Assembly: GCF_964204645.1 (NCBI RefSeq)
Contig: NC_134032.1
Span: 3,248,175-3,312,174 of the forward strand
Direction: 5' to 3'
Source: Tubulanus polymorphus
Lineage: Eukaryota > Animalia > Nemertea
DNA length: 64,000 nt
Shown here: positions 2,951 through 37,491 of the stretch, in pieces
How the letters are laid out: the number at the start of each line of letters is the position of its first letter
Position numbering within the stretch: position 1 is the stretch's first letter
Made by a program: the position numbers and the translations under genes
The notes under the pieces: model-generated
Told to the model about the DNA's origin: nothing
Seen by the model: the letters and a program-made list of their open reading frames with translations, nothing else
Database searches by the model: none

Positions 2951-3327
2951 GCACAGGACGATAAATGAAGGATATTTCGTACAATTTCACTTTAAGAAGT
3001 AGATCATCCATGAATTATTTCATCGAGGCAGGAAGAAGTTATTGTCACGGAATTGACCGGTTTAGCTGCTAATAATAGGCCTAATACGTCTCGCGATTAG
3101 TTACACAATAGGATGATTCATCTGATATTTCTGTGAGGAAAAGTTTTCAATTGAAAAAATGAGAATCAAATTACGATTACAATAACTTTAACAAATAGAT
3201 GAATAAAGACGTCGATAAAGCTAGTTTATGTCACTGTTAAGATCGAAGTCAAACCGCTTCGTTTTCATTAGGCGTTCGATTATACTTGCTCACATTGTTC
3301 GAGAGAAAAATCTGAATCCGAACGACG

Positions 3328-4287
3328 ATGAATTCTAGCAGCGATATCTCCGCGATCAGTCGACCTTACAACAGCTATATAATACTGATGTCCACGATGA
3401 ACGAGACGGGTCGCACGCGTCTGCTTTCGCTGGTATTGTTACCGATACTATTCGCGTCGGGTGCGTTCGGGAACACGTGCACTTTGCTGATAGCCGGCAG
3501 CCGACAGTTCCGCGCTTTGTCCTATTCGAATTATCTCATAATGTTGTCGGTTAGCGATATGCTCGTCTGCGTCGCTTTGGAGGCGATGCCGCTGTTGCAT
3601 TTCTGGCTACGGGAACTAGGCTTCGGCGGCGTGCTTCTAAACAGCGCGGCCGCCTGCGCCGTCTATGAGGTCGTGTTCCTCGCGTCGTACTGTAACAGTT
3701 CCTGGCTCGTCGTTGCTATTTCGCTCGAGCGTATGGCGGTCGTTTCGTTCCCACTGTCGTCGCGCCTAATTTGCACGAGAACCTTCGCGCGAAGCGCCGT
3801 GGCTTGCGTCACGGTCGGCTGCTTCGCCGTGTCGTCGGGCTTCTTCTTCAGCATGCGTTTTAAGGTATCGCTGGGTTGTTACACCGTACCGGGTCGGCAC
3901 GACGAATACATGACCGCCGTCGGAAGTCTATGCTACTTCGTGCCGCAGTTCCTGATCGTGGCGGCTAACACGGCCATCGTGGTTCTACTCTTCGCGCGTA
4001 AAGGCCCGCGCTCGACCGATAGGAAGTCGGCCACCGCTACCCGTACGACCGTCATGCTGGTCACCGTATCCGTCGTTTTTACGGCTACGACTTTCCCGTC
4101 GATGTTAATCACGTTGCTGAACAAGCTCGGAGTTCATGTAATCGCAGACGAGAGAATGGTACAGGTCGCCTCGCGTCTACAAGCCCTGAACTACTGTATC
4201 AATTTCTACGTATATCTCCTACTAGGCAAAGACATGCGCGCGTATTTTTGTCGACATTTCTGTAAATGTTCAACAATTCGTCACTAA
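3328..4287 (+). CDS. Intronless class A (rhodopsin-like) peptide-type GPCR
   Basis: 319 aa, seven hydrophobic segments; GN (TM1), LSVSD (TM2), SLERM (DRY-like), TM5/TM6 prolines, NYCINFYVY (TM7). Confidence 0.9.
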   Translation: MNSSSDISAISRPYNSYIILMSTMNETGRTRLLSLVLLPILFASGAFGNTCTLLIAGSRQFRALSYSNYLIMLSVSDMLVCVALEAMPLLHFWLRELGFGGVLLNSAAACAVYEVVFLASYCNSSWLVVAISLERMAVVSFPLSSRLICTRTFARSAVACVTVGCFAVSSGFFFSMRFKVSLGCYTVPGRHDEYMTAVGSLCYFVPQFLIVAANTAIVVLLFARKGPRSTDRKSATATRTTVMLVTVSVVFTATTFPSMLITLLNKLGVHVIADERMVQVASRLQALNYCINFYVYLLLGKDMRAYFCRHFCKCSTIRH

Positions 4288-6248: not shown

Positions 6249-7239
6249 TCAAGCTTTGGCGGCCGAGCTAGCGGATGACTTATTGGTCAGCGGAGTTTGA
6301 CACCTTAACATGTAGGACAACTGGTTTCTGAAATTCGGGCTGCGAATGCAGTAGATATAACCGTTGATCGCGTGTCCGATCACGTGCAGAAGTTGCGCCG
6401 ACGAGTCGAACATGATCAGGGAGTGAAGGAGGCTCGTGCAGGCTAACTTGATGTAATTGTAGAGATCCTGGACGAAGAAATTCACGCAAAACGGTACGTT
6501 CGAAACCAGAAACGATACCGACACGGACATCAGCGTCACCGTCAGTTCTTTCTCTTTCGTGGCTGCGGTCATCTCCGAGGTGGACGCCGCCGCTCGCAGC
6601 AGCGTCATCACGATCGCCGTGTTGAACAGAAACAGGCTCGGTATCGGCAGATAGAATAATAAACTGTTGCTGACGTGCGACCAGATGTCGTACAGAGACT
6701 CGCCTATGTGATTGCTCGACAAACAGGCGAACAGGTCGCAGATTTTGATGGTATCGTAAAACACGTAAGCCGGCCCTCCCCCTAGACGGGCCAGAACGAA
6801 TATAGCCACCGTGATTGCGATGGCTTTTTTCACCGTGCAGAATTCGGTAGCTTTGAACGGGAATAGCACGACGAACGATCGGCGGTCATCGCTATGACCG
6901 TCCAGGTGCCCGCCGTATTCGCGGTGAACAGCCAGGCTTGCATAAGTTTGCAAACGTACTCGTTTTCGTAGCCGTACGCCAAAACGGGTCGCATAAACAG
7001 GTAAACCGTGTCGACGGCCGCTATAGAGCACATGTACCACGAGGCAGAGCTACGCAAGGCCTGACCCCGGCCGCCAACAGGGTCAGGACGTTCCCGACGA
7101 TGCCGATTGCCACAACGACGTAAATAGCGTAACGACCGAGGATGTAAAACATGTTCACGTAGAACGGGTCGCACAGTAAATTCGTCTTGGCCATTTCGCA
7201 AAATTCTGCGGTGAAACCGCCGGCGCTCGCGTTCGTCAT
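6249..7239 (-). pseudogene. Class A GPCR broken by two frameshifts
   Basis: TM1 GIVGN in ORF 7021-7239, TM2-3 (IAAVD...AMTADR) in ORF 6830-7201, TM4-7 (AINGYIY) in ORF 6249-7040: three different frames, breaks near 7058 and 6878. Confidence 0.85.
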
Positions 7240-9022
7240 CCTGGTTGGTCTCGAGATAGTTTAGCTCTTCTAATTCTATAGCTGCTGGAATCGACTTCGT
7301 TCTAAAAAGATTGAGAAAAGAGAATGAAATTATTCGTATACGGAGAGATGTAATTTGTAGCTATCCGCAGATATGGGTGAGTCATGTAACACTGACGGTC
7401 AGCCGCGGGTTCAACGGGATTCGAACCCATTCGAGTCCAACCCCGCGTAGCACGGGCTCAATGGGATTCGACCCCACCTCATCTGGTTTGAGAGTCAAGC
7501 ATGTGTATTACCTCTGCGACTAATCTTTCTCATCAATTCCTTGCGATGTCAATTCAACACGTCCATTTTTTTGATACCGCTGTGTGATACCGCTTTATGG
7601 ACGCTTGACACAATCGAACCGGTGACAGTCAGCTCATTATCGTGAACTAACGAAACGCGAGCCGAATTGAGAGTGTTTAAAGAGACACTTTTATTATACG
7701 AAATAATTCACCAGGTTCTGAATACTGTCTAAAAAGGGTCTACGTACTCAACACCAGCGATGTAAACAAATTAGCGTAATTTTACGTTTCATTGAAACAC
7801 TGAACTCTCAAGTTGGTTTTTACTACAGACCAGGATTCGACAAATCACGATGTAGATCACACATAAATTAATCTGTGGAACTGAGTGAAATTAACCCCAG
7901 ACGAATGCGGAACTGGATTTAAAAGGCAAAATATAGCTGCACAGCAGCGATAACGGGTTTCTGCCTAATTGTTTCATATGTCGAACTGGGAAGCGTACGA
8001 AGATTTCATCGAAATAATTCTAGCCCATAACATATGACTATTGCCAAGAAGCGCAATCTGGGTCAACATTATGCTGGATATGTGGATATGATTTGTCAAA
8101 GCATCGAAGCAATACAGTCCAACTTGTTTATGTCTCAGATGGAGCGCGCGGGACAGGGCCGTCATTATACTGGTGACATCCAAATTACACCTTCACAGCG
8201 CAACGTCTTTCAGTGTGTAAACTCCATCGTACTCGGCATTAAAGGACAGTGAGGAATTGAATTTTAGCCACCTAAGCCCTTGGCTTGATTCGAGCAAAAG
8301 ACCTAACGAACCCGGCAGTTGACTAAATGCACACCTTACGCCCTGTTTGTCTCAAATATGAGTTACAACATGTGACTGAACTGCATGAATTAACAATTCA
8401 ACAATTTCAGTTAATCAATGATTTTATCAAGTTCGTCGAAATCGAAATGTTTTGCCTTTTAAATTCGAGTTAAGATTGTGCAGGAATGTACTCAAGACAA
8501 TGCGGGCAACAGTACAATATGCCGTATAGCCCCCCCCCCCGCCTATGATTAGAGATGTCGGCAGTTTAATATTAATATTTTTAGCGCCTGTTATGCCTAA
8601 TTCTAGTTACACAATGTGTTTGGTTTGAATCAATTGAATTATGTAAATTTCACGCAATAAATGATTATGACAATTATGAAAATGAATGAGTTTTTAATAA
8701 GCTCCAGGTTAACAATGTTTAGAATTCATTTATCGATTGGAAATGAGGAAGTAGCTTCAGTCGAAGCAGTCAGTTGTTTCATTTTTTTTGTGTTCAAATC
8801 GTTGGAAAGCTATGTTAGAGAATCCATTGAAACAAAAACCATCTGTAGAAAGAGCTTTAGAGATGAACAATATCGAGTTTTCGCTTGATATTTGTTATGT
8901 AAGAATTTGATTTTTTTTTCTATAAGGCTTATTCGGTGGAACTGGGATCAGTGAGGTGAATGTTTATCAAGCTCCAGAACGGAACATGCTGAGAACAATA
9001 GCCCAAAATTTTATTCAACGGC

Positions 9023-9143
9023 AGTAATTAGAAAAGTGGGGTTTCATACCAGAGGGCGAGAGGGCGAGACACCACTCATCACCACAAGTAATTTTTTTCC
9101 TAACACTCATTACCACAAGTAATTTTTTTTCCTAATAAATGGG
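9023..9143 (+). repeat. Left terminal inverted repeat
   Basis: Reverse complement of 24710-24831 apart from one substitution and a 1-nt T-run difference; runs into the polB start codon. Confidence 0.95.
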
Positions 9144-12100
9144 GGAGAATGAACACCAACTAGAAAACAATAATGTCAATAAAAATCAATATTATTGTCA
9201 ATATTGTAAAAAAAACATCGATACATCTCATAAAACACGACATGAAAAAACTGCAAATCATATAAAAAATGTAATAGATTTTGAAACTCCAGAAAATTCC
9301 AATGAAAGAAAAGAACGATTAGAAAATATGAATGTGGATGAAATAAAATGTGAAGTTTGTAATGAATTTATAGTAAAAAGGAATTATAATAGACATCTCG
9401 AATCACAAAAACACCACCAAAATTTGAGTAATAATGTTTTAGGAAAAGATTATTTTGATAATAAACCTCAAAAAGTAAAAGAATCAACTTCAAAAACTAA
9501 ATCCATTTCAAATAAACCTTACATGGAAAATGTTAGAAATTATATTGATTCACTAGAAATAAAAGATACAATTGAAATCTTAGAAACATTACATAGTAAA
9601 ATTGGTCCTGCAGCTATTATATTTAGATTTTTTAAAGGTACAACAATAGAAGATTATAGTAAATTTAATGAAATAATAGAAAAAATACTAGATTTGATAA
9701 CAGATGTTGAATATCCAAAAATTAGTATCTCTGGGAAAGTAAGTTTTATAAAGTCAGAAGAAAAAATGAATTATAATATTCAAACACACTCTGAAGAAAT
9801 AATTTCAAAAACACAAATAAAAGAGAAGTTAGAAAAAATATTTAATGAATTTAAACGTCATATTGAAGAAAGATATTTTGAGGGTTCTGGCTTAACATTG
9901 AATGAAATAATATATTTAGATTTAAATGTTTATAATACAAAAAGGAATAAAACATCAAAAAGTAATAAAATGTTTAAAAATGATTCAAACTTTACAACAG
10001 AAAAGGATATTAAAGCATCATCTTATATTAAATTACCATTTACAACAAAAGCAGTAATAAATGTTCAAAATGAAGATAATAAATGTTTTCTATGGTCAAT
10101 TATTAGTTGTTTACACCAAACAGAAGATACGACGCATAGTTTTAGAATAACAAATTACCGGAAATATGAAACATTATATAAAATTGATCAATATCCAGTA
10201 ACTATAAAAATGATTCCTAAAATAGAAAAAATTAATAATTTAAAAATAAATGTATTCGAATTAATGCAATTACCAAAGACAAAAGGTGAAAATATTAAAG
10301 ATTATACATTGGAAGCTTTATATTTAACAGAATATTATGATGATGAAAATGCTATAGATTTGTTATATTACAAAAAAGATGAAAATGAACATTATATGTG
10401 GTTAAAACAAATTGATTTATTCTTTAGAACAACAGAAAGTGATCATCATCGTAAAATTTATCTATGTAGAAAATGTTTATCTAAATTTATGACTGAGAAT
10501 ACATTATTAAAACATAAAGAATTATGTGATAATAAAGATTTTTGTAAATTAATAATGCCAACAGAAAAAGATTATGAATTGAAATTTCCTAATCATAAAT
10601 TTAAAAATATTGTTCCATTTGTAATTTATGGGGATTTTGAATCGTTGAATAAAGAATTAACTGATCAAGATAGAAAAGAAATATATAACAAAAAGCAATT
10701 ATTAAAATCAATGGATAAAGGAAGTGAATTAAATGAAGATATAATTCAAGACCCACCAATCATAAATACAATTAAAAAAGTTCATCAAAGAGCTGCTGCT
10801 TATGGAATTTATATAAAATCAAATTATCCTGAATTATATGAAAGTCAATATATTTCTTTTAGAGGTGAAAATGTAGTTAATGATTTTTGTGATAAAATTA
10901 TTGAATTAGAAAGTGATTTTGCAAAATTATTAAACAAAAATAAAAGAATAGTTATGACAAAAGAAGATGAAATTGATTTTAATTATGCAACTCATTGTTG
11001 TTATTGTGAAAAACGTTTTTATTCATTTGATAAAAGAGTTAGAGATCATGATCATTTGAATTCAAAATATCGTGGAGCTGCTCATGAAGATTGCAATTTA
11101 CAAGCTAAGAAAGTTAATTTCGTACCAATATTATTTCATAATTTATCAGGCTATGATACCCATCTATTTATAAAACAATTATCGGGAAAATTGGGTGCAA
11201 TTAATCAAGAAATAGAAGAATATAATGCTATGAATGGTGTAAATGTAAGAAAATATGATTTTAAACTATTAGCTAAAACATCTGAAAATTATATTTCATT
11301 TCAATTTGGTTGCATTAGATTTTTAGATTCTTATAGATTTCTAGCAAGTTCATTAGATAATTTATCAAAATCATTAGTTGATAATGATTTTGTTATAACT
11401 CGATATTATTATCCAAATGACCAAGATTTTAAATTACTGAGATATAAAGGCGCAATTCCTTATTCATTTTATAAAACACATGATGATTTTAATGTAACAG
11501 AATTATTAAAAGATCAATTTTATGATAAATTAAAAGAGGAGTATGTGAAAGACGAAGTGTTTAATAGAACATTAAATATTTGGAACCATTTTAAGATGAA
11601 AAATCATGGCGAATTAGTTGATTTATATTTAAAATCAGATGTTATGATATTAGCTGACATATTTGAAAAATTTAGAGAAGTTAATTTGAATCATTTTAAT
11701 GTTGATCCTTGTTATTGTTATTCTAGTCCTGGTTTAACCTGGCAATGTGGTTTAAAATATACAAATGTAGAATTAGATTTATTAAAAGAACCAGATATGG
11801 TTTTATTATTTGAAAAATCAATTAGAGGTGGAATTAGTGGTGTTATGGGAGATAGGTATTTTAAAGCAAATGATGAATATAAATTATTATATATTGACGC
11901 CAATAATTTATATGGTTGGGCAATGATGCAACCTCAACCATATAAAAATTTTATATTAACAGAAGTTGAAAATGGTGATAAAACTGATTGGGAAAACGCA
12001 ATTGCGAGTTTAAAAGATGAAGCACCAATTGGTTATTTCTTTGTAGTTGATTTAGAATATCCTGAAAATATAAAGTTTAAAACAAGAAACTTACCTTATT

Positions 12101-14203
12101 GCCCAGAACATTTAACTGTAGATGATAGTTATTTAAGTGAATACCAGAAGAAAATAAAACCGAAAGATCATGTTTTTACAGAAAAATTAATACTTACTCA
12201 AAATGATAAATACAATTATATTGTTCATTATAGAATGTTAAAATTTTATCTAAAACAAGGAATGAAATTAAAGAAAGTACATAGATATATTGAATTTAAT
12301 CAATCGAAGTGGTTAGAAAAATATATAGATTTCAATACTCAACAGAGAACCATATCAAAAACAGATTTTGAAAAAGATTTCTTCAAATTAATAAATAATA
12401 GTTTTTATGGTAAAACATGTGAAAATATTAGAAATAGAAATGATATTGAATTAGTGAATAATTCTGAAAGATTAAGACATTTACAATCAAGTCCTAGACA
12501 TTTAGGAAATAAAAGATTTGAAGATTATTTAACAGCAGTTAAATTAAAAAGAACATCATTAAAATTTAATAAACCTATATTTATAGGTTCAACTGTTTTG
12601 GAAATATCAAAATTATTGATGTATAATTCTTATTACAATGTTTTGCAGCCACTTTTTGGGGAAAAACATATAGAAATATTATATTTTGATTCTGTAACGG
12701 CTGACACCCCAATATTATTAAAATGTAATAATAAAATATTGGTAAGAAGAATTTCAGAAATAATTCCTAATCAAAATAAATCTTATATTTCATATGGTGA
12801 AAAAGAACTAATACAAATAAATGGTTTAATGGATGTTTGGACAAGAAATGGATGGAAAAAATTAAAGAATATTATTAGACATAAAACAAATAAGAAAATC
12901 TATAGAGTTAGAACTAAATTAGGATTTGTAGATGTTACTGAAGACCATAGTTTGATTAAACTAAATGGTGATGAAATAAAACCAACTGATATAAAAATTG
13001 GAGATGAATTATTACATAAAAGATTTTTCCCAAGAATGAATCATATGTCATTTGATGAAATAATTAATAATACTTATAATATAGAACCCGAAACATTGGA
13101 AGAAAAAGAATATTTTATCAAAGGATTTTTCATGGGTGATGGTTCAGCAGGTGTGTATAATTATGTTAGTGGAACTAAATATTGTTGGTATTTATGCAAT
13201 CAAGACTTAAAATTATTAGAAAGAATTACGAAATTCTGTGAAGAAGTTTATTCACATAAAACATTTAGAATCATGGATGTTATGAAATCATCAGCAGTTT
13301 ATAGAATACTTATAAATAATCCTAAAGATTTTGCTATAGAATATAATGATGAATTCTATATTCATGCAATAGTGAAAAGTAATACTTCGACAAAAGAAAA
13401 GATAGTTCCAGATTATGTATTGAATGCAAAAAAATAATTTAAGAAAATGGTTCTTCATTGGATTATATGCAGCAGATGGTTCAAAAAGTTTCAAAACAAT
13501 ATCTTTAGCTCAAAAAGGAAAAGTTGCTATATCAGGATTGAATATATTATGCACTTCATTAGGATTTAATATGAATATTGGATTGATTAAATCTAAACCA
13601 AATTGCTTTAATTTAAGCCATGTAGAAAATGAGTTAACTGAAGAAGTTAAAGATTTATTTGAAATATATAACCCAACGGATTATGTTTATGATTTATCAA
13701 CTGAAGATGGTACATTTAACTGTGGATTTCCATTAATAGCGGTCAATACTGACGCCTACATACTAAAAATCAAGACAAATGACATAACAAAAGACTTAAA
13801 AACATTAAAACATCATTTTGATTTTAGCAATTATCCTAAAGATCATGAATTGTTTAGCAATGATAATAAAAAGATTCCTGGTAAATTTAAAGATGAATTA
13901 GGGGGTGATGAAATGATTGAATTTGTTGGGATAAGAAGTAAAATGTATAGTTACAGAACAAAAGATCATGAAGCTAAAAAGTTAAAAGGAATAACAAAAC
14001 ATGTGGTTGATAAACATATAGAATTTCAAGATTATATAAAGTGTTTATATAAATCAATTGTAATGAAACACAAAATGAATTGTTTAAGATCAGAAGATCA
14101 TGAGATGTACATTAATGAAGTTGAAAAAACTAGTTTAAATCCATTTGATGATAAAAGGCATATTTTAGATGATGGTATAAAAACATTACCTTATGGTTAT
14201 TAA
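9139..14203 (+). CDS. Protein-primed family B DNA polymerase with N-terminal zinc fingers, endonuclease VII-like insert and an intein; +1 frameshift at A7 (13428-13434)
   Basis: YGDFES (ExoI), FHNLSGYD (ExoII), YIDANNLYG (motif A), KLINNSFYGK (motif B), YFD//TDA (motif C split by intein), KLKGI; CCYC...RDHDH...GAAHEDCN EndoVII-like motif. ORF 13424-14203 supplies the C-terminus. Confidence 0.95.
12691..13747 (+). mobile_element. Intein with LAGLIDADG homing endonuclease in PolB motif C
   Basis: Starts SVTADTPIL, block B VDVTEDHSL, endonuclease motifs GFFMGDGS and GLYAADGS, block F VYDLSTEDGTF, ends AVN followed by +1 Thr; excision restores YFD-TDA. Confidence 0.93.
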
Positions 14204-15513
14204 AATGGATCTATATCATCAAACTCGAAATCACTATTGGCTTCTTCATTTTCATTTAATTGTTCAGGTTCTTCTTCCATTCCATTTTTCTCATTTAAAT
14301 AAAGTTCTATCTTGTTCCACATTTCATCTCGCTCTCTTTGTTTCTTTTTGTTTGTTAATTCATCAAATGGAATTATAATATCTAGGTTTAAATAATTTAC
14401 AATCTTATTTAAAAAGAATTCATAATTTATTGAATCTGTTATTCTATTTTCCAAATGATACATTAATATTTGTTTAAATATTTTTTTTATATTTTCCATA
14501 TCTTCTTCTGTTAATTTAGGTTTTTCATAATAATCGTTAAATAATAAATATAAATACATTTTCTTTTGTTTTGTGTTAAATGTTGGTGGAATAATTGTTT
14601 TTATAATATCTTTTTTAGTTATTTCACCATTTTTATTTTCTATTATTTTCATTTTTTCAAGCCATTGCATATATTCTGGTGTATGATCTTCTATAGAAAA
14701 TATTTTAAAAATTTCATCTAGATAATTTAATTTTGGTTCTATGAGAAAATTTCTAGTTTTTTCTTCACCCCATAAATTCTTTTGCCATCCACATTCAACA
14801 CAAAATAACACAGTACCTTCTTGCCTTAAGGTCGCATAAATACATTGTGGGCATTTTTGTTTATAATTTACTAGTAATAGATCTTCATTAAGCTCTTGGT
14901 ATTTTCTTACGTTTTCTTTATGTTTTATTGTTCTATTATGTAGATTTGAATTACTTGTTGTAATAATCAATTTACAATATTTACAATAATATGTTTTTCT
15001 TGTTAATTCATTATATTGTTTTTCTAACTTTTCAACTGTTTCTTCATTATCTGGTAACGTTTTCTCATATTTTATTTTTTCTAATAAATTATTTTTTCTT
15101 GCATTGAATTCAGTTTCAAATTTATTAGAAATTTTATCTTTATGTACTTTACGAAATTGATGATTCTCCCAATCTTCTATATTTTCAGGGTTATATTTTA
15201 TTCGACAAGGCTCACAGAAATAATCGTTTATATTATCCTTATCATAGAATAAGAAAGGTCTTTTCCAAATAATTTCAGGTTCAACTTCAACAGAATTATT
15301 ATTACTTTCGTAACTGTCAACATTATCTATTAAGTTATTATTTTTACACTTCTCTAAATGTTTTTTGAAATAATTTCTAGAGAATGTTTTATTACAATTT
15401 GGACAGTTTATTTTAGGGGGTTTATAATTTTCATCATGTTTTTTCATATGTCGAGCCATATTACTTTTTCTTAGAAGTTCACCACAAATTTCGCATGCTA
15501 TCTTCTCATCCAT
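14200..15513 (-). CDS. Multi-zinc-finger protein with a C-terminal poxvirus VLTF3 (A2)-like late transcription factor domain
   Basis: Four Cx2C...H fingers, then zinc ribbon CPQC-x13-CVECG and IFKQIL...SINYEFFLNKI...DEMWNKI, matching by eye the VLTF3 pattern (vaccinia A2 IFKHLV...[11 protein letters not shown], recalled from memory). Confidence 0.75.
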   Translation of the reverse strand: MDEKIACEICGELLRKSNMARHMKKHDENYKPPKINCPNCNKTFSRNYFKKHLEKCKNNNLIDNVDSYESNNNSVEVEPEIIWKRPFLFYDKDNINDYFCEPCRIKYNPENIEDWENHQFRKVHKDKISNKFETEFNARKNNLLEKIKYEKTLPDNEETVEKLEKQYNELTRKTYYCKYCKLIITTSNSNLHNRTIKHKENVRKYQELNEDLLLVNYKQKCPQCIYATLRQEGTVLFCVECGWQKNLWGEEKTRNFLIEPKLNYLDEIFKIFSIEDHTPEYMQWLEKMKIIENKNGEITKKDIIKTIIPPTFNTKQKKMYLYLLFNDYYEKPKLTEEDMENIKKIFKQILMYHLENRITDSINYEFFLNKIVNYLNLDIIIPFDELTNKKKQRERDEMWNKIELYLNEKNGMEEEPEQLNENEEANSDFEFDDIDPF

Positions 15514-15581
15514 TTATTAAGGAAAAATTTTATTAAAATTAATTTTTAGTGATGAGCGGTAATTTTTTTATGTTATAAATA

Positions 15582-16331
15582 ATGGTAGAATTAAAAGAAT
15601 ACAGAATATTTGTTGATTCTAGAAAACTTACAAATTATAAATCACATAATTTACTAATACAATTAGATAGAGAATTCAAGAATTGTGTAGATTTAAAATT
15701 AGTAAATATAAGTTTATGTAACTCATTTTATAATATAACAGCTAAAAGTCTTGAACATTTATTTTTTTCAATCAAGAGTAAGGATAAATGGAATTATCTA
15801 TTTTTAAAACCAGGATTATATAATTTAAATACATTAGCGCAGGAAATTAATAAAAAAGCTCGGATCAAATTAGGTAGTGATGCTGAATTTAACATTAGAT
15901 TTTTGAAAAGTGATAATTCTAATAAAATGAAGATAAGGTTAGCTCATAATGAAAAATATCAATTTTCAGTTAAAAAACCTATAGCTAAACTATTAGGAAT
16001 TACACCAGATAAATATTATTCAAATGTTGATACTACACCAAATATAATACCTTTTACACACTTTTATATTTATTGCAATTTAATCGATCCTACAAAAACA
16101 TTCGAAGCAACTAAAGATATAACTTGTAATTCTGGTTTACTAATTTTACCAATAAAGAATGTTAAACAATTTGGAACTCAAATAAATTATAATTTAGCTG
16201 AATGTGATTTCAAACCTTGTATTCCTCAATTTAATAATTTTAAATTAGAAATAAGAAATCATAATGGATACTTAATTGATTTGAATAACTTTCCTGTAAT
16301 TTATGAATTAGTTATGAGATGTAAAGAGTAA
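15582..16331 (+). CDS. Minor capsid (penton-like) protein
   Basis: IFVDSR at the start, NSFYNI, PGLY, C-terminal NGYLIDLNNFP: pattern and size typical of Polinton/virophage minor capsid proteins. Confidence 0.75.
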   Translation: MVELKEYRIFVDSRKLTNYKSHNLLIQLDREFKNCVDLKLVNISLCNSFYNITAKSLEHLFFSIKSKDKWNYLFLKPGLYNLNTLAQEINKKARIKLGSDAEFNIRFLKSDNSNKMKIRLAHNEKYQFSVKKPIAKLLGITPDKYYSNVDTTPNIIPFTHFYIYCNLIDPTKTFEATKDITCNSGLLILPIKNVKQFGTQINYNLAECDFKPCIPQFNNFKLEIRNHNGYLIDLNNFPVIYELVMRCKE

Positions 16332-16347
16332 TTTTTCACCTATATAA

Positions 16348-16671
16348 ATGAATATAACTGTTGGACCGAGTATATGTTTTGGGTTTGATTTTAAACGTGA
16401 GAAAGATTATATCAAAAATATTGCATTTTCTAATGAAACAACATTTGAGTATGAAACAACAATAGATAAAGAAACTTTAAATGTAGAAAAGATTACTAAT
16501 TTAATTAGAGAATCTTTAAGATTTTATGAATTAGATGAAGATTTTATAATCGATGATATTAAGAAAATAATAATTGAAATATATACAAATGAAACTAGTA
16601 ATAAAATAAATGTTGAATTAATCATAAATAAGTTAACTAAATATTTTGAAGATAGTAATTTTTTTGATTAA
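16348..16671 (+). CDS. Hypothetical acidic viral protein
   Basis: 107-aa ORF preceded by the element's TAAATG motif, packed between neighbours. Confidence 0.65.
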   Translation: MNITVGPSICFGFDFKREKDYIKNIAFSNETTFEYETTIDKETLNVEKITNLIRESLRFYELDEDFIIDDIKKIIIEIYTNETSNKINVELIINKLTKYFEDSNFFD

Positions 16672-16674
16672 TAA

Positions 16675-16896
16675 ATGAGTGATAATAAGTGGATAATAAC
16701 TGGATTATATAATGGCGCATTACTATCAGTTGGAACGGTTGGTTATTCAATGGTATTAAAAAAAGTATTCAAAATGGGAAGTGTTAATGTTGATAGATTT
16801 GATATAAATGATATTTTAAAGTTAACATTAGCAGTTACTTTATCTAATTTAACTATTGATTATTTGGAAAAACAAAAATATATTCCTCCCATATAA
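16675..16896 (+). CDS. Small hydrophobic viral protein
   Basis: 73 aa, two hydrophobic segments, TAAATG start. Confidence 0.7.
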   Translation: MSDNKWIITGLYNGALLSVGTVGYSMVLKKVFKMGSVNVDRFDINDILKLTLAVTLSNLTIDYLEKQKYIPPI

Positions 16897-16921
16897 ATGT
16901 GTAATTTTTTTTATTAAATAA

Positions 16922-17344
16922 ATGGCTTCTGCAATTATAACTATTATAGGATCGGCAATTGTTAACGCTTTAGCATTTACTGGTGGTGGTTATTTATTTA
17001 AACATATTGATAAAAATAGTTCATTAGGAGAACAAAGAAGACATAACTTAGCGTTAGAGAAATACAATAAAGCTGCAGAAGAATATAGAGAAAAGAGGCA
17101 AAACTATATGGATTACATCAATAAAGAATTATATGATCAGAAGATTTCACATAGAGATTTTCAATCAGTTGATGATGCAATGAGTTTATATAACGCAGTA
17201 ACAAATAAAGAAAAATTACATCTATACAAACCTAAATTTTCAGATTATTATACCCCAAGTAAAGAACAACAGAAATATGAAATAATATGGATTTTAGGTG
17301 GAACAGTTATTGTTATATTTGTTGCTTATAAGTTTACTAATTAG
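16922..17344 (+). CDS. Viral membrane/coiled-coil protein
   Basis: Hydrophobic N-terminus (AIVNALAFTG), RRHNLALE coiled region, C-terminal TM; TAAATG start. Confidence 0.75.
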   Translation: MASAIITIIGSAIVNALAFTGGGYLFKHIDKNSSLGEQRRHNLALEKYNKAAEEYREKRQNYMDYINKELYDQKISHRDFQSVDDAMSLYNAVTNKEKLHLYKPKFSDYYTPSKEQQKYEIIWILGGTVIVIFVAYKFTN

Positions 17345-17363
17345 TAATTTTTTTTCTAAATAA

Positions 17364-17798
17364 ATGGAAGATAAAGTTGATAGTATTGATATTATTCCTC
17401 ATGATATAAATAAAACTAAATTAAAAACATATTTAGAAAAACAAATATTAGAATTTGAAAGTGACTTAAAGATAAAAAAGAAAAAATATTTAAAAAGTAA
17501 AATTATATATTATTTGATTATAAGTGGTTCGGTTACAATTAGTTCTGTAATAACATTTTTAGCAATATTCAGTCCATTAACACCTTTAGCTATATCAATT
17601 GGTGTATTAGGATTAAGTTCAAGTGTTTTAACTGGTATAAGTTCAAAATTTAATATAAAAAGTAATAAAGAAAAAATTAAAACTAATATAAAAGAAATAA
17701 ATAAATTAAAGAACACACTAGATTATATCATAAGTTTAAATGGTCATATAACAGTTGAAGAACAAGATAAATTATTAAAAGAATTAATAAATTATTAA
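17364..17798 (+). CDS. Viral two-TM protein
   Basis: 144 aa, central hydrophobic hairpin flanked by coiled segments; TAAATG start. Confidence 0.7.
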   Translation: MEDKVDSIDIIPHDINKTKLKTYLEKQILEFESDLKIKKKKYLKSKIIYYLIISGSVTISSVITFLAIFSPLTPLAISIGVLGLSSSVLTGISSKFNIKSNKEKIKTNIKEINKLKNTLDYIISLNGHITVEEQDKLLKELINY

Positions 17799-17815
17799 TT
17801 TTTTTAATTATATAA

Positions 17816-19204
17816 ATGGTAGATAGTTTTCCAAAAGCTTTCCAATATAATAAATCAATTAAATATAATATTCCGGCAATAGATTTTAATAAAGATATTA
17901 CATATAGCAATGAAGTTTTAAATTCATTAATTGATTTATATATTTATGTTACTGAAACTAATAATTTTAATGCAAAGATGGAAAATATATTTCATGTATA
18001 TTTAATTAATTTTAAAAAATTGAAAGATGAAAAACAATGGTTATTAAAATCTAATATGAAGTATTGGCAGAATCAATTAAATTTTGCTGTTTATTGTGCA
18101 ACAACAGGATGTGGAATTAGTTGGAATGATCATTTGAATAATTCTAAATATAAATTAATTCAAAGTTTATTTAGATTTCATACATACTTTCAAATCAGAA
18201 TAATATTAAATGAATTAGAGTGCGCTTTACCAGGATCTAGGTATTTTAAAGAATTAGATAATAATATTAATTTATCTAAGTTTTATAAGATTTGTAATGA
18301 ATTTAATATAGATATAAATAATTCTGATTTTAGAACAAAAATTGGAACAATAAGATCACTTCCTTGCCCTAAAAAGATTGCAGAATATTGTGCACTTCCC
18401 ATACCATCTAATAGTTTTTATAATATCTATAATAATAAATTAGGTTATGGTAAAATAGAAACAAAGGATTTAGAAACATTAAATTTCAATAAATTACCGA
18501 AATTTTATGATAATTTAAAACAAGAAAACAATAATGGTTGGGTATATTTTATTTTAGAAAATAGTGAAGGTTTTACTAAATCAGGTATAGAAAGAATAAA
18601 TCAATCTATTAGAACTTATTTGATTTGTATTCTAGGATCACAAGTTGAAACAAGATCACCGATAATTGGAAATTTGAATACATCATTCGATACACAAAAA
18701 CAATTTAAAGTATTATTTGAAGATTCCATACATAATGATAAAAATAGATCGATTCCAGAAAACATTATAAGATATCAAAATTATTTAGATAAATCTCATG
18801 TAAGACTTAATTATTGTATAGGCCCTAATCTATTAATTATTTCTAATGATTTAGTATTAAAGATGGGAAACATAATTGGTTATAATAATCTAATTAAAAC
18901 TGCAACAATAAATAATTCATTTGGGTTAAATGATATAAATAAAAAGATTATTACTGCTCCAAAATTAATGGAAGGTGAAAAAAATAAAAAACACATTCAA
19001 TCAACAGAAACTAAAACTAATAATATTAAATTAAATAATGATTCTAAAATAAAAGATTACAATACATCAGAAAATAATAGAACTGATAAAATTCAACATG
19101 ATATAATTAAAACTGATAATGATAATAAATCACATGAAAATACTAAATTAGCTATAACTTGTATAGGAATTGTAATCGGAGGAATATTATATTTTAAATT
19201 TTAA
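17816..19204 (+). CDS. Hypothetical viral protein with C-terminal TM anchor
   Basis: 462-aa ORF with WQNQLNFAVYCATTGCGIS motif; TAAATG start. Confidence 0.8.
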   Translation: MVDSFPKAFQYNKSIKYNIPAIDFNKDITYSNEVLNSLIDLYIYVTETNNFNAKMENIFHVYLINFKKLKDEKQWLLKSNMKYWQNQLNFAVYCATTGCGISWNDHLNNSKYKLIQSLFRFHTYFQIRIILNELECALPGSRYFKELDNNINLSKFYKICNEFNIDINNSDFRTKIGTIRSLPCPKKIAEYCALPIPSNSFYNIYNNKLGYGKIETKDLETLNFNKLPKFYDNLKQENNNGWVYFILENSEGFTKSGIERINQSIRTYLICILGSQVETRSPIIGNLNTSFDTQKQFKVLFEDSIHNDKNRSIPENIIRYQNYLDKSHVRLNYCIGPNLLIISNDLVLKMGNIIGYNNLIKTATINNSFGLNDINKKIITAPKLMEGEKNKKHIQSTETKTNNIKLNNDSKIKDYNTSENNRTDKIQHDIIKTDNDNKSHENTKLAITCIGIVIGGILYFKF

Positions 19205-19220
19205 TTTTTTCATTATGTAA

Positions 19221-20664
19221 ATGGATGTAGAAGGTGGAGAAGATATTGGAATGGATGACATGGGAAATGATAATGAAGGATATATTGATAATGATTATAA
19301 TAATGCAGGCGCTAATATTGATAATGATGAATCAGCATATAATTCTAATTTAACTACACCTCAATATATTGACAAAGCACGTTCAAAGATAAGTATTGAA
19401 AATGAAGTACCAGAAATAACAGAAAAAGAATACAATTATAATGAAATTATTCATGAATTTAAACCAATATTAAAAAAATCTGGTTTCAATATAACAGATA
19501 ACGGTATGGATAAATTAGCAAAAGATTTGAAATATTTAAATGGTGATTATTATTGGAAATTGAAAGGCGACTATTATTTTAAGATTTCAAATCTTAAAAG
19601 TAGCAGTAATGATAAAATAATAACACAATCAACTTCTAATTTATTAGAACAATCTAGAATTAAGAAAATCAATAATGATGTTATAACTGATGTTACAAAA
19701 AAAGAAAGAACTGTTAATTTTAAAGAATTTAAACAAAGAAATGCTAAATTTTTTGATATAATTAATGCAAATTTAAGACAAAAAAAAAATTCCTAAAGAA
19801 GTTATTAATTCCAAAACTAGTAAACCTAATTCAAGCGAAGTTCAAACTGAAAAACTTTTACCAAATGGATTACTTGATGCAACAGATCAACAATTAGAAG
19901 ATTTAAATATATTTTCTGATAAAACAATTAGAGAAATTATTAGTATAAGAAATGAAACTGATAAAATTGCACATAATAAAAGTATAAGAGATATTAAAAT
20001 TAACAATTTAGAAAAAGAATTAACTGATAAAAATAAAGAAATAGAACAATTAAAGTCTGATTTAGATCGTCAAGTAATTGATGAAATAGAATATAGGCAA
20101 AAAGAATCACGTTTAGAAAAAGAAATAGATGATTTAAAATATAACAAAGAATTACAAAAAGAAGAAATAGATACATTGTTAAAATCATATGATTATAATA
20201 TTAATAGATTAAAAGTTATTTTTAAAGATTTGTTGATTAAACCAAATTCTGAAATATCATTAAAAGACAGAATAAGATTATTATTTAAATTAGAAGGAAT
20301 AACAATTCTTTCAATTCTAACAGCTGTAACTATGTTATTTACAACAATTGGTTTAGCAATATCAAATGCTTTGAAATCTACTTCTACTCCCACTCCCAAT
20401 AAACCAGATAAACCTCCAGGTAATAATTCTATACAAGATAAAGTTAAGGATGGTTTAAAGAAATTAGCAAAATATTTATGGGAACTATCAAAGAAATCTG
20501 CTGCAGCATTGCCAGGAGTTATTGCTTCAATTGTTGGTTTTATATTGAAATCTGCTGGGAATATTCTTAACTTTGCTGCTGAACATATTATTTTATTTTT
20601 AATCACAGTTGTAAGTGCTATTATTTTTGGGTTAGTAAATATGATATCAAAAAATATCAAGTAA
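19221..20664 (+). CDS. Coiled-coil/multi-TM viral protein, +1 frameshift at A10 (19780-19789)
   Basis: The frame of ORF 20176-20664 is stop-free back to ~19790; removing one A joins it to ORF 19221-19796. No separate TAAATG before 20176. Confidence 0.8.
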
Positions 20665-20710
20665 ACCATGATATCAAAAAATATCAAGTAAACCATGATA
20701 TCAAAAAATA
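20641..20710. repeat. 27-bp tandem duplication (~2.5 copies) over a stop codon
   Basis: ATGATATCAAAAAATATCAAGTAAACC repeated. Confidence 0.9.
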
Positions 20711-20735
20711 AATAATTAATTTTTTTGTTAAATAA

Positions 20736-21851
20736 ATGAGTGGGAGTTATATAAGTCCTTCGAAGAATCATAGAATATCTAATGCTATTAAAGCAGAAAG
20801 ATCACATCATATAATTACTCATAACCCTTCAAATATTAATCCCGATGAAACTTTATATGTGAGGATTCCTCGATTAACACAAAATACTTTTTATGTTCCA
20901 AATAGTATTTATTTATCAGCCGATATAAAAGTAACTGGTCATGATAATAATTATGTTGTCGATAATGTTGGAAGATATTTGATTAAAAAGTTAACAATAA
21001 AGATTGGTCCAGAAACAGTTTTCTCATTAGATGATTATAATTTATTTATGTATAATAAAGATTTATGGTTAACTAAAGAAAATAGAAATAATATGATATT
21101 TCAGGGTATTCAATCGGAAAACCATAATAAATTAAGATCTGAAGCCAATAACGCAGTAGTAAATAATAGCGTAGATAATTTGATTAAAAAGATTTATGGA
21201 AGTAAATATAAAATTCCATTAGACTTTGAATTGATAAATAATAATGCACCTTTATATAAATACGCAATTCAAGAAGATATTATATTTGAGATAACATTTG
21301 CTCCTGTAAATGAAATTGTATTATCTAGCGTTGTTAAAGATATGGGTTATAAATTATCGAATATATGTTTAGAATATAACACAGTAACTAATGAAAATAT
21401 TGCTAGCACAATTCAAACTCAATACAATCAAGGATTTTCATTATTATATGATTATATTGATAAATTTAAAACTGTAACTATTAATGCAAATGATGAAATA
21501 ATTAATGAGAATATTAACTTTCCTAGAAGATCTATTAAAGGTATATTAATGTTTTTTACCATTGCAACATATTCTAATGGCGCAATAAATGTTGATAATT
21601 ATTATAATCCTGAAATAACAAAAGTAGAAATAACTATCGAAGGAATAGCAAATAAAATATTTTGTCAAGGAATGAGAATGATTGATCAATGGCCAGAAAT
21701 TAGAAAACATTTTATGAATGAAAAAGTAAAATCATCTGAAAATTGTAATATTAATCAAATTGATTATTATACCGGCAATAAATATGCATTATGGTTAGAT
21801 TTTAGAACAACAGAGGATAATTCATTACATGGTTCTGGAATATATGGATGA
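20736..21851 (+). CDS. Major capsid protein (double jelly-roll), probably C-terminally truncated
   Basis: ITHNPSNI...LYVRIP, VDNVGRYLIKKL, YYNPEITKVEITIEG, LWLDFRT...LHGSG resemble invertebrate Polinton MCPs; stops three codons after LHGSG. Confidence 0.75.
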   Translation: MSGSYISPSKNHRISNAIKAERSHHIITHNPSNINPDETLYVRIPRLTQNTFYVPNSIYLSADIKVTGHDNNYVVDNVGRYLIKKLTIKIGPETVFSLDDYNLFMYNKDLWLTKENRNNMIFQGIQSENHNKLRSEANNAVVNNSVDNLIKKIYGSKYKIPLDFELINNNAPLYKYAIQEDIIFEITFAPVNEIVLSSVVKDMGYKLSNICLEYNTVTNENIASTIQTQYNQGFSLLYDYIDKFKTVTINANDEIINENINFPRRSIKGILMFFTIATYSNGAINVDNYYNPEITKVEITIEGIANKIFCQGMRMIDQWPEIRKHFMNEKVKSSENCNINQIDYYTGNKYALWLDFRTTEDNSLHGSGIYG

Positions 21852-21921
21852 GTTGAAAAATATTAAAAGATCAAAATTACTATTTAGATTACAACACCCA
21901 TTTAAATATGAATTTATTTAA
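21841..21921 (+). pseudogene. Orphan 3' gene fragment, possibly the packaging ATPase C-terminus
   Basis: Reads YMDELKNIKRSKLLFRLQHPFKYEFI* with no TAAATG start; resembles from memory the tail of Polinton A32-like ATPases. Confidence 0.4.
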
Positions 21922-21929
21922 ATTCAATT

Positions 21930-22152
21930 AGTTTGTTAATCTAGTTGAATTCTAGTTATTGGTAGTTGTAACAAAAATCAAATAGATTTAACAATATTTT
22001 AACTAGCTTGTTAATCTATTTTAATTCTAATTACATTCTAGTTGAATTCTAGTTGTTAGTAGTTGAAACAAAAATCAACTAGATTTAACAATATTTCAAC
22101 TAGCTTGTTAATCTAGTTGAATTCTAGTTACATTCTAGTTAAATTCTAGTTG
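21930..22152. repeat. CTAGTT/AACTAG-rich intergenic repeat, ~100-bp unit duplicated
   Basis: Many CTAGTTGAATTCTAGTT units in direct and inverted arrangement. Confidence 0.8.
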
Positions 22153-22185
22153 CAACATCACACAATTAATTTTTTTGTTATATAA

Positions 22186-22791
22186 ATGGGAGGTGAAAAG
22201 AAAATAAAATCTAAAAATGGTGATGTTCCAATTGAAAAAACTTTAGATGATTTAGGAATAACAGAAACAAAATTAACTCCAGATGATGGTGCTTTAAATA
22301 ATGTTACAACAAATAATAATTATGAATATTATCTTTATTGTAAACATCAATTAGAAATATTAATAGCATCTGGAAAATGTAAAAATTTTGTCGGTAAAAA
22401 TTTAACTTATAATGAATTAGACACAATGAAATCAGATGAAATTATTAGATTATTTAAGATTTATGAAGCCGCGAGAACAGCTAGAATTAATGACGCGATA
22501 TCAGAAAATGTAGTAAAAGGTTATAGTAAATTATGTAATTATATACTACCAATTGAAAATGAAAATAGATTATATTCTGATTTAAAAAATGATTATTTAG
22601 TTATGACTGAATTAAATAAATGGATTGGATATTTATCATTTCAATTAGGTGGATTTATGACATTATTATCAACTGGAGTTATAACATTTTCAAATATTGA
22701 AAGTAAAGATATTTCTATAATAAATGAGCGAGGTGAAAGAAGTGAAGGAATTAACTGTGAAGAAAAAACCGAGAACTCAGAAACAAATTGA
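22186..22791 (+). CDS. Hypothetical viral protein
   Basis: 201 aa, TAAATG start, hydrophobic segment near the C-terminus. Confidence 0.75.
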   Translation: MGGEKKIKSKNGDVPIEKTLDDLGITETKLTPDDGALNNVTTNNNYEYYLYCKHQLEILIASGKCKNFVGKNLTYNELDTMKSDEIIRLFKIYEAARTARINDAISENVVKGYSKLCNYILPIENENRLYSDLKNDYLVMTELNKWIGYLSFQLGGFMTLLSTGVITFSNIESKDISIINERGERSEGINCEEKTENSETN

Positions 22792-23092
22792 ATGGTCTCG
22801 GCAATTAGGAATTAAATCACAAGAATATAAAAAAGCTGTAAAAGAAAAAATAAGTAATAAAAATGTTAATAAAAATGGTGAAAATATTGTTATTTCTACT
22901 CCTTCTGATAATAGAATATTTGATAAATATTTATATTTTACAGTTGGATTTGTAATTGTATTCATTTTGATTGGGTGTAATTGGTATAAGAAATCAAATA
23001 AAATTCATGATATTAGTAATTCTGAACCAACTGCTATCAAAAATGAAAGTACTTCTGAAATTCCAAAATTGATAATAAAAAAAATGGATTAA
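22724..23092 (+). CDS. Basic single-TM viral protein
   Basis: 122 aa, KKPRTQKQIEW basic N-terminus, TM YLYFTVGFVIVFILIG; TAAATG start inside the previous gene. Confidence 0.7.
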   Translation: MSEVKEVKELTVKKKPRTQKQIEWSRQLGIKSQEYKKAVKEKISNKNVNKNGENIVISTPSDNRIFDKYLYFTVGFVIVFILIGCNWYKKSNKIHDISNSEPTAIKNESTSEIPKLIIKKMD

Positions 23093-23455
23093 TATTTTAG
23101 AAAAAAAGCAAAAAAAAAAATAATTGAATATCTCACTACTTTTGTCTATCACTGTGGAGCAATTAAATTGTCCAGATAAGTCATTTCGGATTCTAGATAT
23201 TCATTATTTTATTAATTTATTTTGTTTTTATTTGAATATTTGAATTTGAATTTGTTAATCAATTAACATAGTAATTGATTACTAATTTGATTAAAAATTA
23301 TATCATAATGAAGTTAAAAATACATAATTCATTTATCAGTTTTCATTCTTACATTCTTTTCATTCGGAATAATCTATAATTTCAAATTTCACATATTTTT
23401 TTAGCACCAACAACATTTACTTAGGTGTTTTAGCTAAGTATATAAGGTAATTCAT

Positions 23456-23720
23456 TCAACCACTGGAGTAGCTCTGGCCAGCAGAGGCATTTTGAAAATG
23501 CACCTTCGTCCACTCTCCGGGTTTCTCCTTCGGTTTCGAATTTCGAGGTTGGTAGAAATTACATTAGGCGCCTTTAATATAATGTGATTTCTACCAATCA
23601 TTGAAGGAGATCCCGGTTGACGTGGGTCGCCGGGGGTGTAAGTAGAAATGACGGGGGATAAGCGTCCCGTGGCGCCTTTCAATAATGGGATGCTTATCCC
23701 CTGAAAACTCTGTAGGTTGA
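23456..23720 (+). ncRNA. Predicted structured non-coding RNA of the element
   Basis: Closing stem 23456-69/23707-20, long interrupted hairpin 23499-23640, 19-bp hairpin 23652-23703; ~12 G-U pairs on + strand; shared loop GGCGCCTTT(C)AATA. Confidence 0.65.
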
Positions 23721-24075
23721 GGATAGGGCAATTTTGCTAAAACTTACCGTAAAAACATTGAAATATTCCTTTTAATCACGAGAGAATGATGACTATCCTC
23801 CTGTCGTCACGGCCGAGCTAATTTAAATAAACCTCGTTTTCAGCAACTAATGAAAACGCAGTAATTCAATACCAGCTAACTGGTTTGTGTGTGTTGTATG
23901 TACTGCGTGCTTATTATATAACAACAACGTTGTGCAACACCTGTTTGATTGATCAATATTCAAATAAAGCACTCTCTTATAATAATATGTAACAGATGTA
24001 CTGTATGATTATAGTTGTTTATAAAACGACTAAGGTCATTTTGGATTCTAGATATTCATTATTTTTATTTCTTAT

Positions 24076-24402
24076 TTAATCAACAATTTCTAAATCATGA
24101 TGACCGTCTTCATTTTTCCCATGATATATTATTTTAAATCCTACTAAATCTTTCAATTCCTCCATACTCAATGAAACCCATTTATCGGGTAAAAACACTT
24201 TAAATTCTCGTGATGTACTAACATTACAGTAGCTTAAATTAGCTGATTCTTTCTCTCCATATTTAGTTTTTATCTTTTCTAATTTCAATATTTTATGTTC
24301 AATTTCTTTTGTAACATCAACTAACTTTTTTATTTCAAATTGTTTTTTTGCTGGTTTTATTCTGTTATTTATTGTTGCTAAGAATGCTTTTCTATCTCCC
24401 AT
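24076..24402 (-). CDS. Hypothetical basic viral protein
   Basis: 108 aa, preceded by a copy of the TIR motif CTCATCACCACAAGTAAT...CCTAATAAATG. Confidence 0.7.
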   Translation of the reverse strand: MGDRKAFLATINNRIKPAKKQFEIKKLVDVTKEIEHKILKLEKIKTKYGEKESANLSYCNVSTSREFKVFLPDKWVSLSMEELKDLVGFKIIYHGKNEDGHHDLEIVD

Positions 24403-24510
24403 TTATTAGGAAAACAAATTACTTGTGGTGATGAGTAATTACTTCCCTTGTATATAACAAGCTCACAGCATCTATTTATCCGGGTACAGTTGACACACGC
24501 GCAGCTGTTG

Positions 24511-24714
24511 TTACGCGCACTCACTGTTTATGTATGTCACAATTTTACTACGTAATATTTCTAAAATTTCAATTGCATCTTTTATTTCTAATGAATCAAT
24601 ATAATTTCTAACATTTTCCATGTAAGGTTTATCGATGTATTTTTTACAATATGGGCAATAATATTGATTTTCATTAACATCACTTTTTTCTGTTTGGAAC
24701 TCACTGTCTCCCAT
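24511..24714 (-). CDS. Short paralogue of the pPolB N-terminus
   Basis: NQYYCPYCKKYID-KPYMENVRNYIDSLEIKD matches PolB aa 1-28 joined to aa ~126-155. Confidence 0.65.
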   Translation of the reverse strand: MGDSEFQTEKSDVNENQYYCPYCKKYIDKPYMENVRNYIDSLEIKDAIEILEILRSKIVTYINSECA

Positions 24715-24831
24715 TTATTAGGAAAAAAAAATTACTTGTGGTGATGAGTGTTAGGAAAAAAATTACTTGTGGTGATGAGTGGTGTCTCGCCCTCTCGCCC
24801 TCTGGTATGAAACCCCACTTTTCTAATTACT
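24710..24831 (-). repeat. Right terminal inverted repeat
   Basis: Mirror of 9023-9143, followed by TSD AACGGC. Confidence 0.95.
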
Positions 24832-25447
24832 AACGGCAGCACATCAAATTCGTGAAGTCCGAAGAGGACGGCATCGATAACAGGTTTCTAATAAAATTTC
24901 TCATATGTTTATTTACAGTACCAAGAAAAGCTAAACATTTACAATACGCTACAAATAGGTATGCACGTGTCCACAAAATGCAAACCTCGTCTCAAAGGTA
25001 GAAAATATTCTATTTAGTATTGGTGAGTTTACAAAACTTGCACAAAACCTGACATGACGATTGGGAGAAATTGAGACCGACCAAGCAATGAGCCCCGACG
25101 ACCGCGCACCGATAATACAATAAAACATGAGGGCGTAACCTGGAAACGGATATGCCATGACACTTGAAGGCGGACAAATAACACAAAATACAACTACACC
25201 AGAGAACGACAATTCGGTGAAATAAGTTAACACGAAATATGTAGAGTACTGACTAAAGAACGGTTTAGACAAAAGCTTGACTACAATAATATAGAATACA
25301 TGCTGAAAAGCTGAAATAACGGGTTTTCCGCCTCGTTGGGTTAGATATCTACCATCATGCGTAAAGAGTTTGGTTGAAAGCGGCAGAAAACCCTGATAAG
25401 AGGTCGTTTCATCGCTGGGTACATCCAGCGGATCTCCGGCCTTCATA

Positions 25448-37489: not shown

Positions 37490-37491
37490 CC

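Follow-up and report, generated by a model that had tools for sequence, protein, structure and literature searches.

The chemistry of intein splicing and homing is well established (PMC5874633, PMC549080), and a review has described multicellular organisms as devoid of inteins (PMC5874633; this and the following papers are cited from their accessible parts). Among viruses, mimivirus PolB carries an intein of 351 aa at YGD/TDS, and an insect iridovirus harbours an intein as well (PMC549080). Inteins in viral-like DNA polymerases were further found on nuclear scaffolds of the algae Klebsormidium and Tetrabaena and of the labyrinthulid Hondaea (PMC10710043); in the main text of that paper, as far as accessible, the words 'animal', 'metazoa' and 'polinton' do not occur. 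Polintons/Mavericks are 13-25 kb long with target-site duplications (TSDs) of 5-8 bp (PMC10748475), and members with an HNH- or VSR-bearing protein-primed PolB (pPolB) have been described (PMC10748475, PMC8502044), the word 'intein' appearing in the accessible text of neither paper. Krupovic et al. suggested intein invasions as the origin of HNH/VSR-type nuclease insertions in pPolB; no Hint domain is shown in the accessible part of that work (PMC11071308). Literature searches brought up no Hint-domain intein in any Polinton polymerase or animal genome, though one might be contained in subscription papers, InBase or supplements. That pol-c homing inteins reside as a family in the Polinton polymerases of animal genomes is apparently an unreported combination of two known element kinds.

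The window analysed here is a stretch of 64,000 nucleotides from the nemertean Tubulanus polymorphus, and its features are compiled in Table 1. With the mimivirus PolB intein and other pol-c inteins (PMC549080, accessible part), the intein in the window shares the motif C site, Ser1, the terminal Asn and the +1 Thr, the TxxH motif, the double LAGLIDADG motif and the size (351 versus 352 codons). Unlike the mimivirus intein, it resides in the protein-primed polymerase of a Polinton in an animal genome, at YFD/TDA instead of YGD/TDS; the likeness to mimivirus was gauged through its family (ChoanoV1, 40%), the mimivirus sequence itself not being identified among the compared rows. The Klebsormidium, Tetrabaena and Hondaea cases (PMC10710043, accessible part) are likewise inteins in virus-derived DNA polymerase genes of eukaryotic nuclear genomes, whereas the carrier in the window is a multi-copy mobile element of an animal host, in which full alleles coexist with empty ones. 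We establish the anatomy of the intein, its exact site, the coexistence of full and empty alleles in the species, a single clade of Polinton inteins and their residence in two very distant polymerase types. Judged by sequence comparison, a full-size pol-c intein in the pPolB of a multi-copy animal Polinton-type element, likely splicing in unbroken copies and likely homing by means of its LAGLIDADG nuclease, is by a good distance the most credible reading.

Table 1. Features of the intein-bearing element in the window (positions count from the first letter of the window).
Feature	Position	Strand	Description
Target-site duplication, 6-bp	left 9017..9022; right 24,832-24,837	+ (left)	
Left terminal inverted repeat	9023..9130	+	108 nt, 99% complementary to the right one
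pPolB N-extein	9139..12690	+	Zinc fingers, HNH/EndoVII-like motif, exonuclease, motifs A and B, first Asp of motif C
pol-c intein	12691..13747	+	LAGLIDADG endonuclease with two motifs, set within a Hint splicing domain (Ser1, TEDH, block F, terminal Asn)
Frame-break stretch	13424..13437	+	Between the two LAGLIDADG motifs; from ORF limits
pPolB C-extein	13748..14203	+	Begins with the +1 Thr, then the catalytic Asp (TDA)
Eleven further element ORFs	14200..23092	unspecified	73-462 aa
Probable double jelly-roll major capsid protein	20736..21851	+	3' end apparently cut short; ESM Atlas lead
Right terminal inverted repeat	24724..24831	-	108 nt

The carrier is an AT-rich, Polinton-type element of 15,809 bp (9,023-24,831). 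Terminal inverted repeats, the 6-bp TSD, a length of 15.8 kb and a pPolB are features it has in common with Polintons/Mavericks, including adintoviruses (PMC10748475, PMC8502044, accessible parts), and a probable capsid gene is a candidate for a further one. The protein-primed PolB was identified by a PF03175 match (66.7 bits), while the HNH/EndoVII-like motif of the N-extein was assigned by likeness to the relative P0400, where PF02945 matches; this profile gave no match on the window's own polymerase protein. The capsid candidate is a lead from ESM Atlas matches (0.96-0.98, recognition 1967, below 2300) that include clusters with PF16903, PF04451 or PF21738 on a minority of their members, and 322 reads diverge from the window within this ORF at 21,840. 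Unlike complete Polintons/Mavericks, the element is without integrase, packaging ATPase and protease: no Pfam match to any of the three was obtained among its ORFs of at least 100 aa or in nine reading frames over 21,852-24,832. It is therefore regarded as a defective derivative and termed 'Polinton-type' rather than a complete Polinton. An empty chromosomal allele was found in sequencing run X1, where a read joint skips 15,815 bases, that is, the element plus one TSD; the insertion is thus recent and polymorphic, and the window copy is a recently inserted yet defective Polinton-type derivative.

The flanks of the element encode rhodopsin-type GPCRs, an EGF_CA domain and Bel/Pao-type LTR-element ORFs, which fits an animal host chromosome. 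An earlier note on this DNA, made from the sequence alone, had placed the intein inside an animal chromosome; the flanks bear this out, with the qualification that the intein resides in a viral gene within that chromosome and not in an animal cellular gene. Around the element lie three rhodopsin-type GPCR ORFs (3,316-4,287, 6,249-7,049 and 60,896-61,582) and a long single-ORF MFS transporter (25,448-26,842), and pieces of LTR retrotransposons at 35,516-38,319 (-) and 44,010-45,077 (+) comprise a zinc-knuckle gag, an aspartyl protease and a Bel/Pao-type DUF5641 integrase region.

The intein spans 1,057 nt (352 codons plus one base) and interrupts motif C of the protein-primed PolB after its first Asp, with YFD upstream, Ser as first residue, AVN at the end and TDA downstream. 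The class-1 intein residues Ser1, the block B TxxH (TEDH, residue 83), the Asp of block F (YDLSTE), the terminal Asn and the +1 Thr are present, and the LAGLIDADG-like motifs read KGFFMGDG and GLYAADG. TIGR01445 (intein_Nterm) matched the N-terminal part with 33.6 bits against a curated cut-off of 24.5. Pfam Intein_splicing (27 bits) and LAGLIDADG_3 (17.6 bits) matched the two halves of the window intein, both below cut-off; PF14528 stayed below its cut-off on the window half and exceeded it on the relatives P0400 and P0005. The top PDB sequence match of the first half was the intein endonuclease PI-PkoII (E 5.7e-6). Independent support for the boundaries came from 36 raw DNA reads that jump exactly 1,057 bases. 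The insert, with the splicing and endonuclease hallmarks and the extra base that the earlier note had described, was thereby confirmed from sequence and reads alike, and a HINT domain match was obtained, as were the intein-free alleles that it had proposed to look for. Its remark that the penultimate Val is atypical holds insofar as Val occupies this position in just 6 of the 312 complete pol-c inteins collected; since residues other than His are in the majority there (His 126, Lys 119, Ser 24), Val is no sign of inactivity. The G+C content of the insert (25-27%) is similar to that of the exteins (23-25%), as expected for a long-time resident.

In the window copy the polymerase gene consists of two ORFs, 9,139-13,437 and 13,424-14,203, pointing to a single frameshift, and the intact relative P0001 matches both halves (62% and 61%). 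This break may be genuine, or it may be an assembly or consensus error in a mononucleotide run. As it stands, the frameshifted copy would give a nonfunctional polymerase in which the second half of motif C is missing. Programmed frameshifting at this position was considered and dropped, because most copies do not have the break. To assess other copies, we used run X5, raw whole-genome reads from a different sample and study under the same species label, of which 12% was read. Unique flanks were covered at a depth of 4-14, the intein at 95-135 (93% likeness) and 100-260 (85% likeness), so that intein-bearing copies should number on the order of tens. Empty polymerase alleles were represented by the 36 skipping reads, compared with about 250 reads that enter the intein, and 35 further reads connect the exteins via three other codons (Thr-Asp-Ser). 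Of the reads across the frame break, 130 of 164 (85% likeness) and 77 of 94 (93% likeness) stem from copies without it, the short reads resolving single sites and not whole unbroken copies in this species. The 40 listed of 406 variant rows included 23 intein variants (11 at third, 7 at first and 5 at second codon positions), too few and too biased to show any selection on the intein.

That the window copy is frameshifted is what would be expected if the insert were a dead fossil, an intron or an assembly artefact. Its ends are not GT-AG and the skip is present in genomic DNA reads, which rules out an intron; the insert is covered 100-260 reads deep in an independent sample, and unbroken versions exist in other clusters. 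We give this explanation next to no probability, and for the intein family as a whole it is refuted.

The best database matches of the window gene were Polinton-type pPolBs whose motif C site holds the same intein. They fall into 13 clusters at 90% identity (P0001, P0002, P0003, P0004, P0005, P0008, P0010, P0259, P0286, P0287, P0288, P0289 and P0420), several of which are unbroken across polymerase and intein; the hosts of most are not established as animals. The record of P0287 belongs to a symbiont bin of clam origin, and Mytilus records supply the empty relatives of P0005 (81% identical). The nearest relatives of the window intein are other Polinton-type inteins (43-63% identity). P0005, whose polymerase may be of the 'VSR-like' type, shares 19-24% identity with the other Polinton-type pPolBs in the extein and 41-48% in the intein. 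Relatives that are empty at the homologous site comprise P0290/P0411, P0127 and P0514-P0519; in the empty alleles P0512 and P0514, Cys replaces Thr at +1 of motif C. The best RNA-primed PolB inteins were about 37-41% identical to the window intein, with that of ChoanoV1 at 40%, and further matches in the wider family included relatives of GVMAG contigs, T4-like phage polymerases (phrog_262) and a few topoisomerase II inteins. Searches of viral contigs returned no related loci either for the intein half or for P0001, and metagenome contigs gave two distant ones (28%). A pol-c intein of the same wider family is present in P0076, the DNA polymerase delta of Chloropicon primus. In P0385, a phage-type protein-primed PolB (phrog_1907), a short intein occupies the same motif C site, apparently by a separate invasion of a pPolB.

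Intein trees were calculated with IQ-TREE (LG+G4 without mixture option) from rows picked to thin near-copies, 55 of 274 in one run and 50 and 48 of 358 in later runs; the 48-row tree leaves out P0385 and the long row P0344. The Polinton inteins were monophyletic (100/100) in the 55-row and the 48-row tree, on a long stem of 0.40 changes per site. Rooted on two Micrarchaeota-labelled inteins, the 48-row tree placed this clade among giant-virus-type PolB inteins, with a sister (98/95) of 14 rows that holds giant-virus-type inteins, including ChoanoV1 and GVMAG relatives, and four T4-like phage gp43 inteins. The sister grouping was weak in the 55-row tree and was displaced once P0385 (wrongly delimited there) and P0344 were included, when the Polinton clade opened at the root; the donor is thus not pinned down. 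In the larger polymerase group, the inteins and the exteins gave trees with the same main clades, and pairwise identities of inteins and exteins correlated weakly (rho 0.43, p 0.11, 15 pairs). The AU test did not reject a placement of P0005 outside the other Polinton inteins (p 0.126), which leaves the direction of the P0005 intein jump unfixed; that the intein did jump between Polinton polymerase types, P0005 versus the rest, is indicated by the sequence identities. On a 29-row extein tree, which excludes five empty pPolBs, the intein state changes at least six times. The T4-like phage polymerases P0011, P0014, P0019 and P0166 carry pol-c inteins nested among giant-virus-type ones, suggesting exchange between phages and giant viruses.

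From these trees, the entry of the intein into Polintons looks old and single, not recent. The earlier note had assigned the intein to the pol-c site and the giant-virus PolB intein family, and had proposed that it crossed between RNA-primed and protein-primed PolBs; both proposals are supported, with about 37-41% identity to the best RNA-primed PolB inteins. Its further claim of a recent transfer did not hold, as the nearest relatives are Polinton-type inteins on a long stem and the comparison of intein and extein phylogenies, which it had suggested, gave shared main clades in the main polymerase group, the very outcome that the note had named as speaking against recency. Recent and repeated acquisition from a giant virus that co-infects animal cells as a helper would agree with ChoanoV1 and GVMAG-type PolB inteins in the sister clade and with giant-virus polymerases as top structural matches in BFVD, but the closest giant-virus intein is at about 41%, the Polinton inteins form one clade on a long stem, and T4-like phage inteins are found in the sister clade too. 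We consider such capture very unlikely and already largely refuted. Nor was the support for a helper-virus model that the note had drawn from the intein sustained: the four phage inteins imply that the family crosses between unrelated viruses without a helper relation, and one old transfer needs just one co-infected cell. An old, single entry is no test of that model, and the finding says little on whether animal Polintons need a helper virus.

Several comparisons bear on whether the intein still homes. Both LAGLIDADG acidic residues and the splicing residues were kept in all seven full-length Polinton inteins aligned, and over 21 pairs the endonuclease part was about as conserved (38-81%) as the Hint part (44-75%). 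For the unbroken relative P0004, not the window protein itself, an AlphaFold model with intein block means mostly of 84-98 and a lowest value of 73 supported a Hint fold with an inserted LAGLIDADG domain. Its best PDB matches were the intein homing endonucleases TliVMA (E 3.8e-15), PI-PkoII, PI-PfuI and PI-SceI, and its best structural matches in BFVD were giant-virus polymerases. Mini-inteins were not significantly depleted among Polinton inteins (0 of 8 versus 63 of 291, p 0.21).

Full and empty alleles occur together inside the 90% clusters of P0004 and P0420, and P0124 and P0127 likewise are a full and an empty allele inside a 90% cluster. Among 15 listed of the 136 members of the P0420 cluster, seven were full, six empty and two uninformative. 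When compared with the full reference, all six empty copies had 8-10 of their 22-64 differences within 12 residues of the site, where about 2-3% would be expected, versus none of the 7-17 differences in the six other full copies; the 12-residue window was fixed after inspection of the data, and the compared pairs are not independent. Near-site differences also clustered in P0287 versus P0369 (10 of 38) and versus P0379 (10 of 31), and did not in P0124 versus P0127 (none near the site), P0287 versus P0382 (2 of 103) and P0005 versus P0525 (4 of 280). The pattern in P0420 fits co-conversion from a foreign donor or the survival of cleavage-resistant empty alleles.

Alternatively, the intein might splice but no longer home. 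It would then be inherited with the element, empty copies being never-invaded lineages or rare precise losses and clustered differences the result of ordinary recombination between families. This would be in line with the agreement of the main intein and extein clades within the larger polymerase group, with P0124/P0127 having no flank differences, and with the full P0420 copies, whose inteins differ at 1-16 of 346 positions and exteins at 1-10 of 600; since these inteins diverged at least as much as the exteins, there was no very recent sweep in that cluster. Against it, endonuclease motifs and length are kept despite 43-63% divergence, the patchy presence requires at least six changes, a jump between polymerases of 19-24% identity is indicated, and differences cluster around the site in two families. 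We therefore regard loss of homing as unlikely, if clearly less so than capture from a helper virus. The stronger proposition, that an active homing intein in animal germlines cuts and converts empty Polintons, selects for resistant active-site sequences and jumped between distant polymerase types in marine invertebrates, we hold to be slightly favoured.

In the reading we prefer, that of a splicing and homing intein, unbroken copies would be translated as a precursor and then undergo class-1 splicing, with an acyl shift at Ser1, transesterification to the +1 Thr and cyclisation of Asn. Splicing would rebuild motif C, the active site of the polymerase, and would be obligatory, since the two halves of this motif are held apart by the insert. 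The freed LAGLIDADG nuclease could cut empty alleles by a double-strand break, gene conversion from a full copy spreading the intein, either among integrated copies or among element genomes that replicate together in the nucleus. After one old entry from the pool of large-DNA-virus PolB inteins, the intein may have resided in Polintons for long, being lost and re-invading repeatedly, and may have moved from one Polinton polymerase type to another at least once. Should the stronger proposition of active homing in animal germlines hold, no intein family before this one would have been shown to persist and home in animal genomes. The family occupies animal chromosomes as a passenger of a multi-copy virus-like element, and this element provides the requirement for homing, a multitude of full and empty alleles per nucleus, which offers a natural test of the homing cycle of invasion, resistance and loss in a metazoan germline. 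Any element that replicates with the intein in place must carry out protein splicing inside animal cells, given that the insert divides the active site of the polymerase. In addition, the intein traces past co-residence of Polintons, giant viruses and different Polinton groups, and new pol-c inteins and meganucleases might be drawn from the family.

Some minor observations concern the remainder of the element. A T-rich motif that ends in the start codon recurs in front of most element ORFs (9,118-22,193; repeat families D4-D6) and is likely a promoter or initiator signal. At the right end of the element, the 5' end of the polymerase gene is repeated in inverted orientation and with an internal deletion (24,395-24,730 (-), matching 9,105-9,228 and 9,512-9,604), and there a second start-site repeat precedes a 108-aa ORF and 57 reads skip 344 bases. 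Right behind the apparently truncated capsid ORF, tandem repeats of 97 nt and 22 nt occupy 21,901-22,152. Finally, 43-nt direct repeats spaced 855 bp (23,180-24,077) enclose a stretch of higher G+C content without long ORFs, perhaps a nested insertion.
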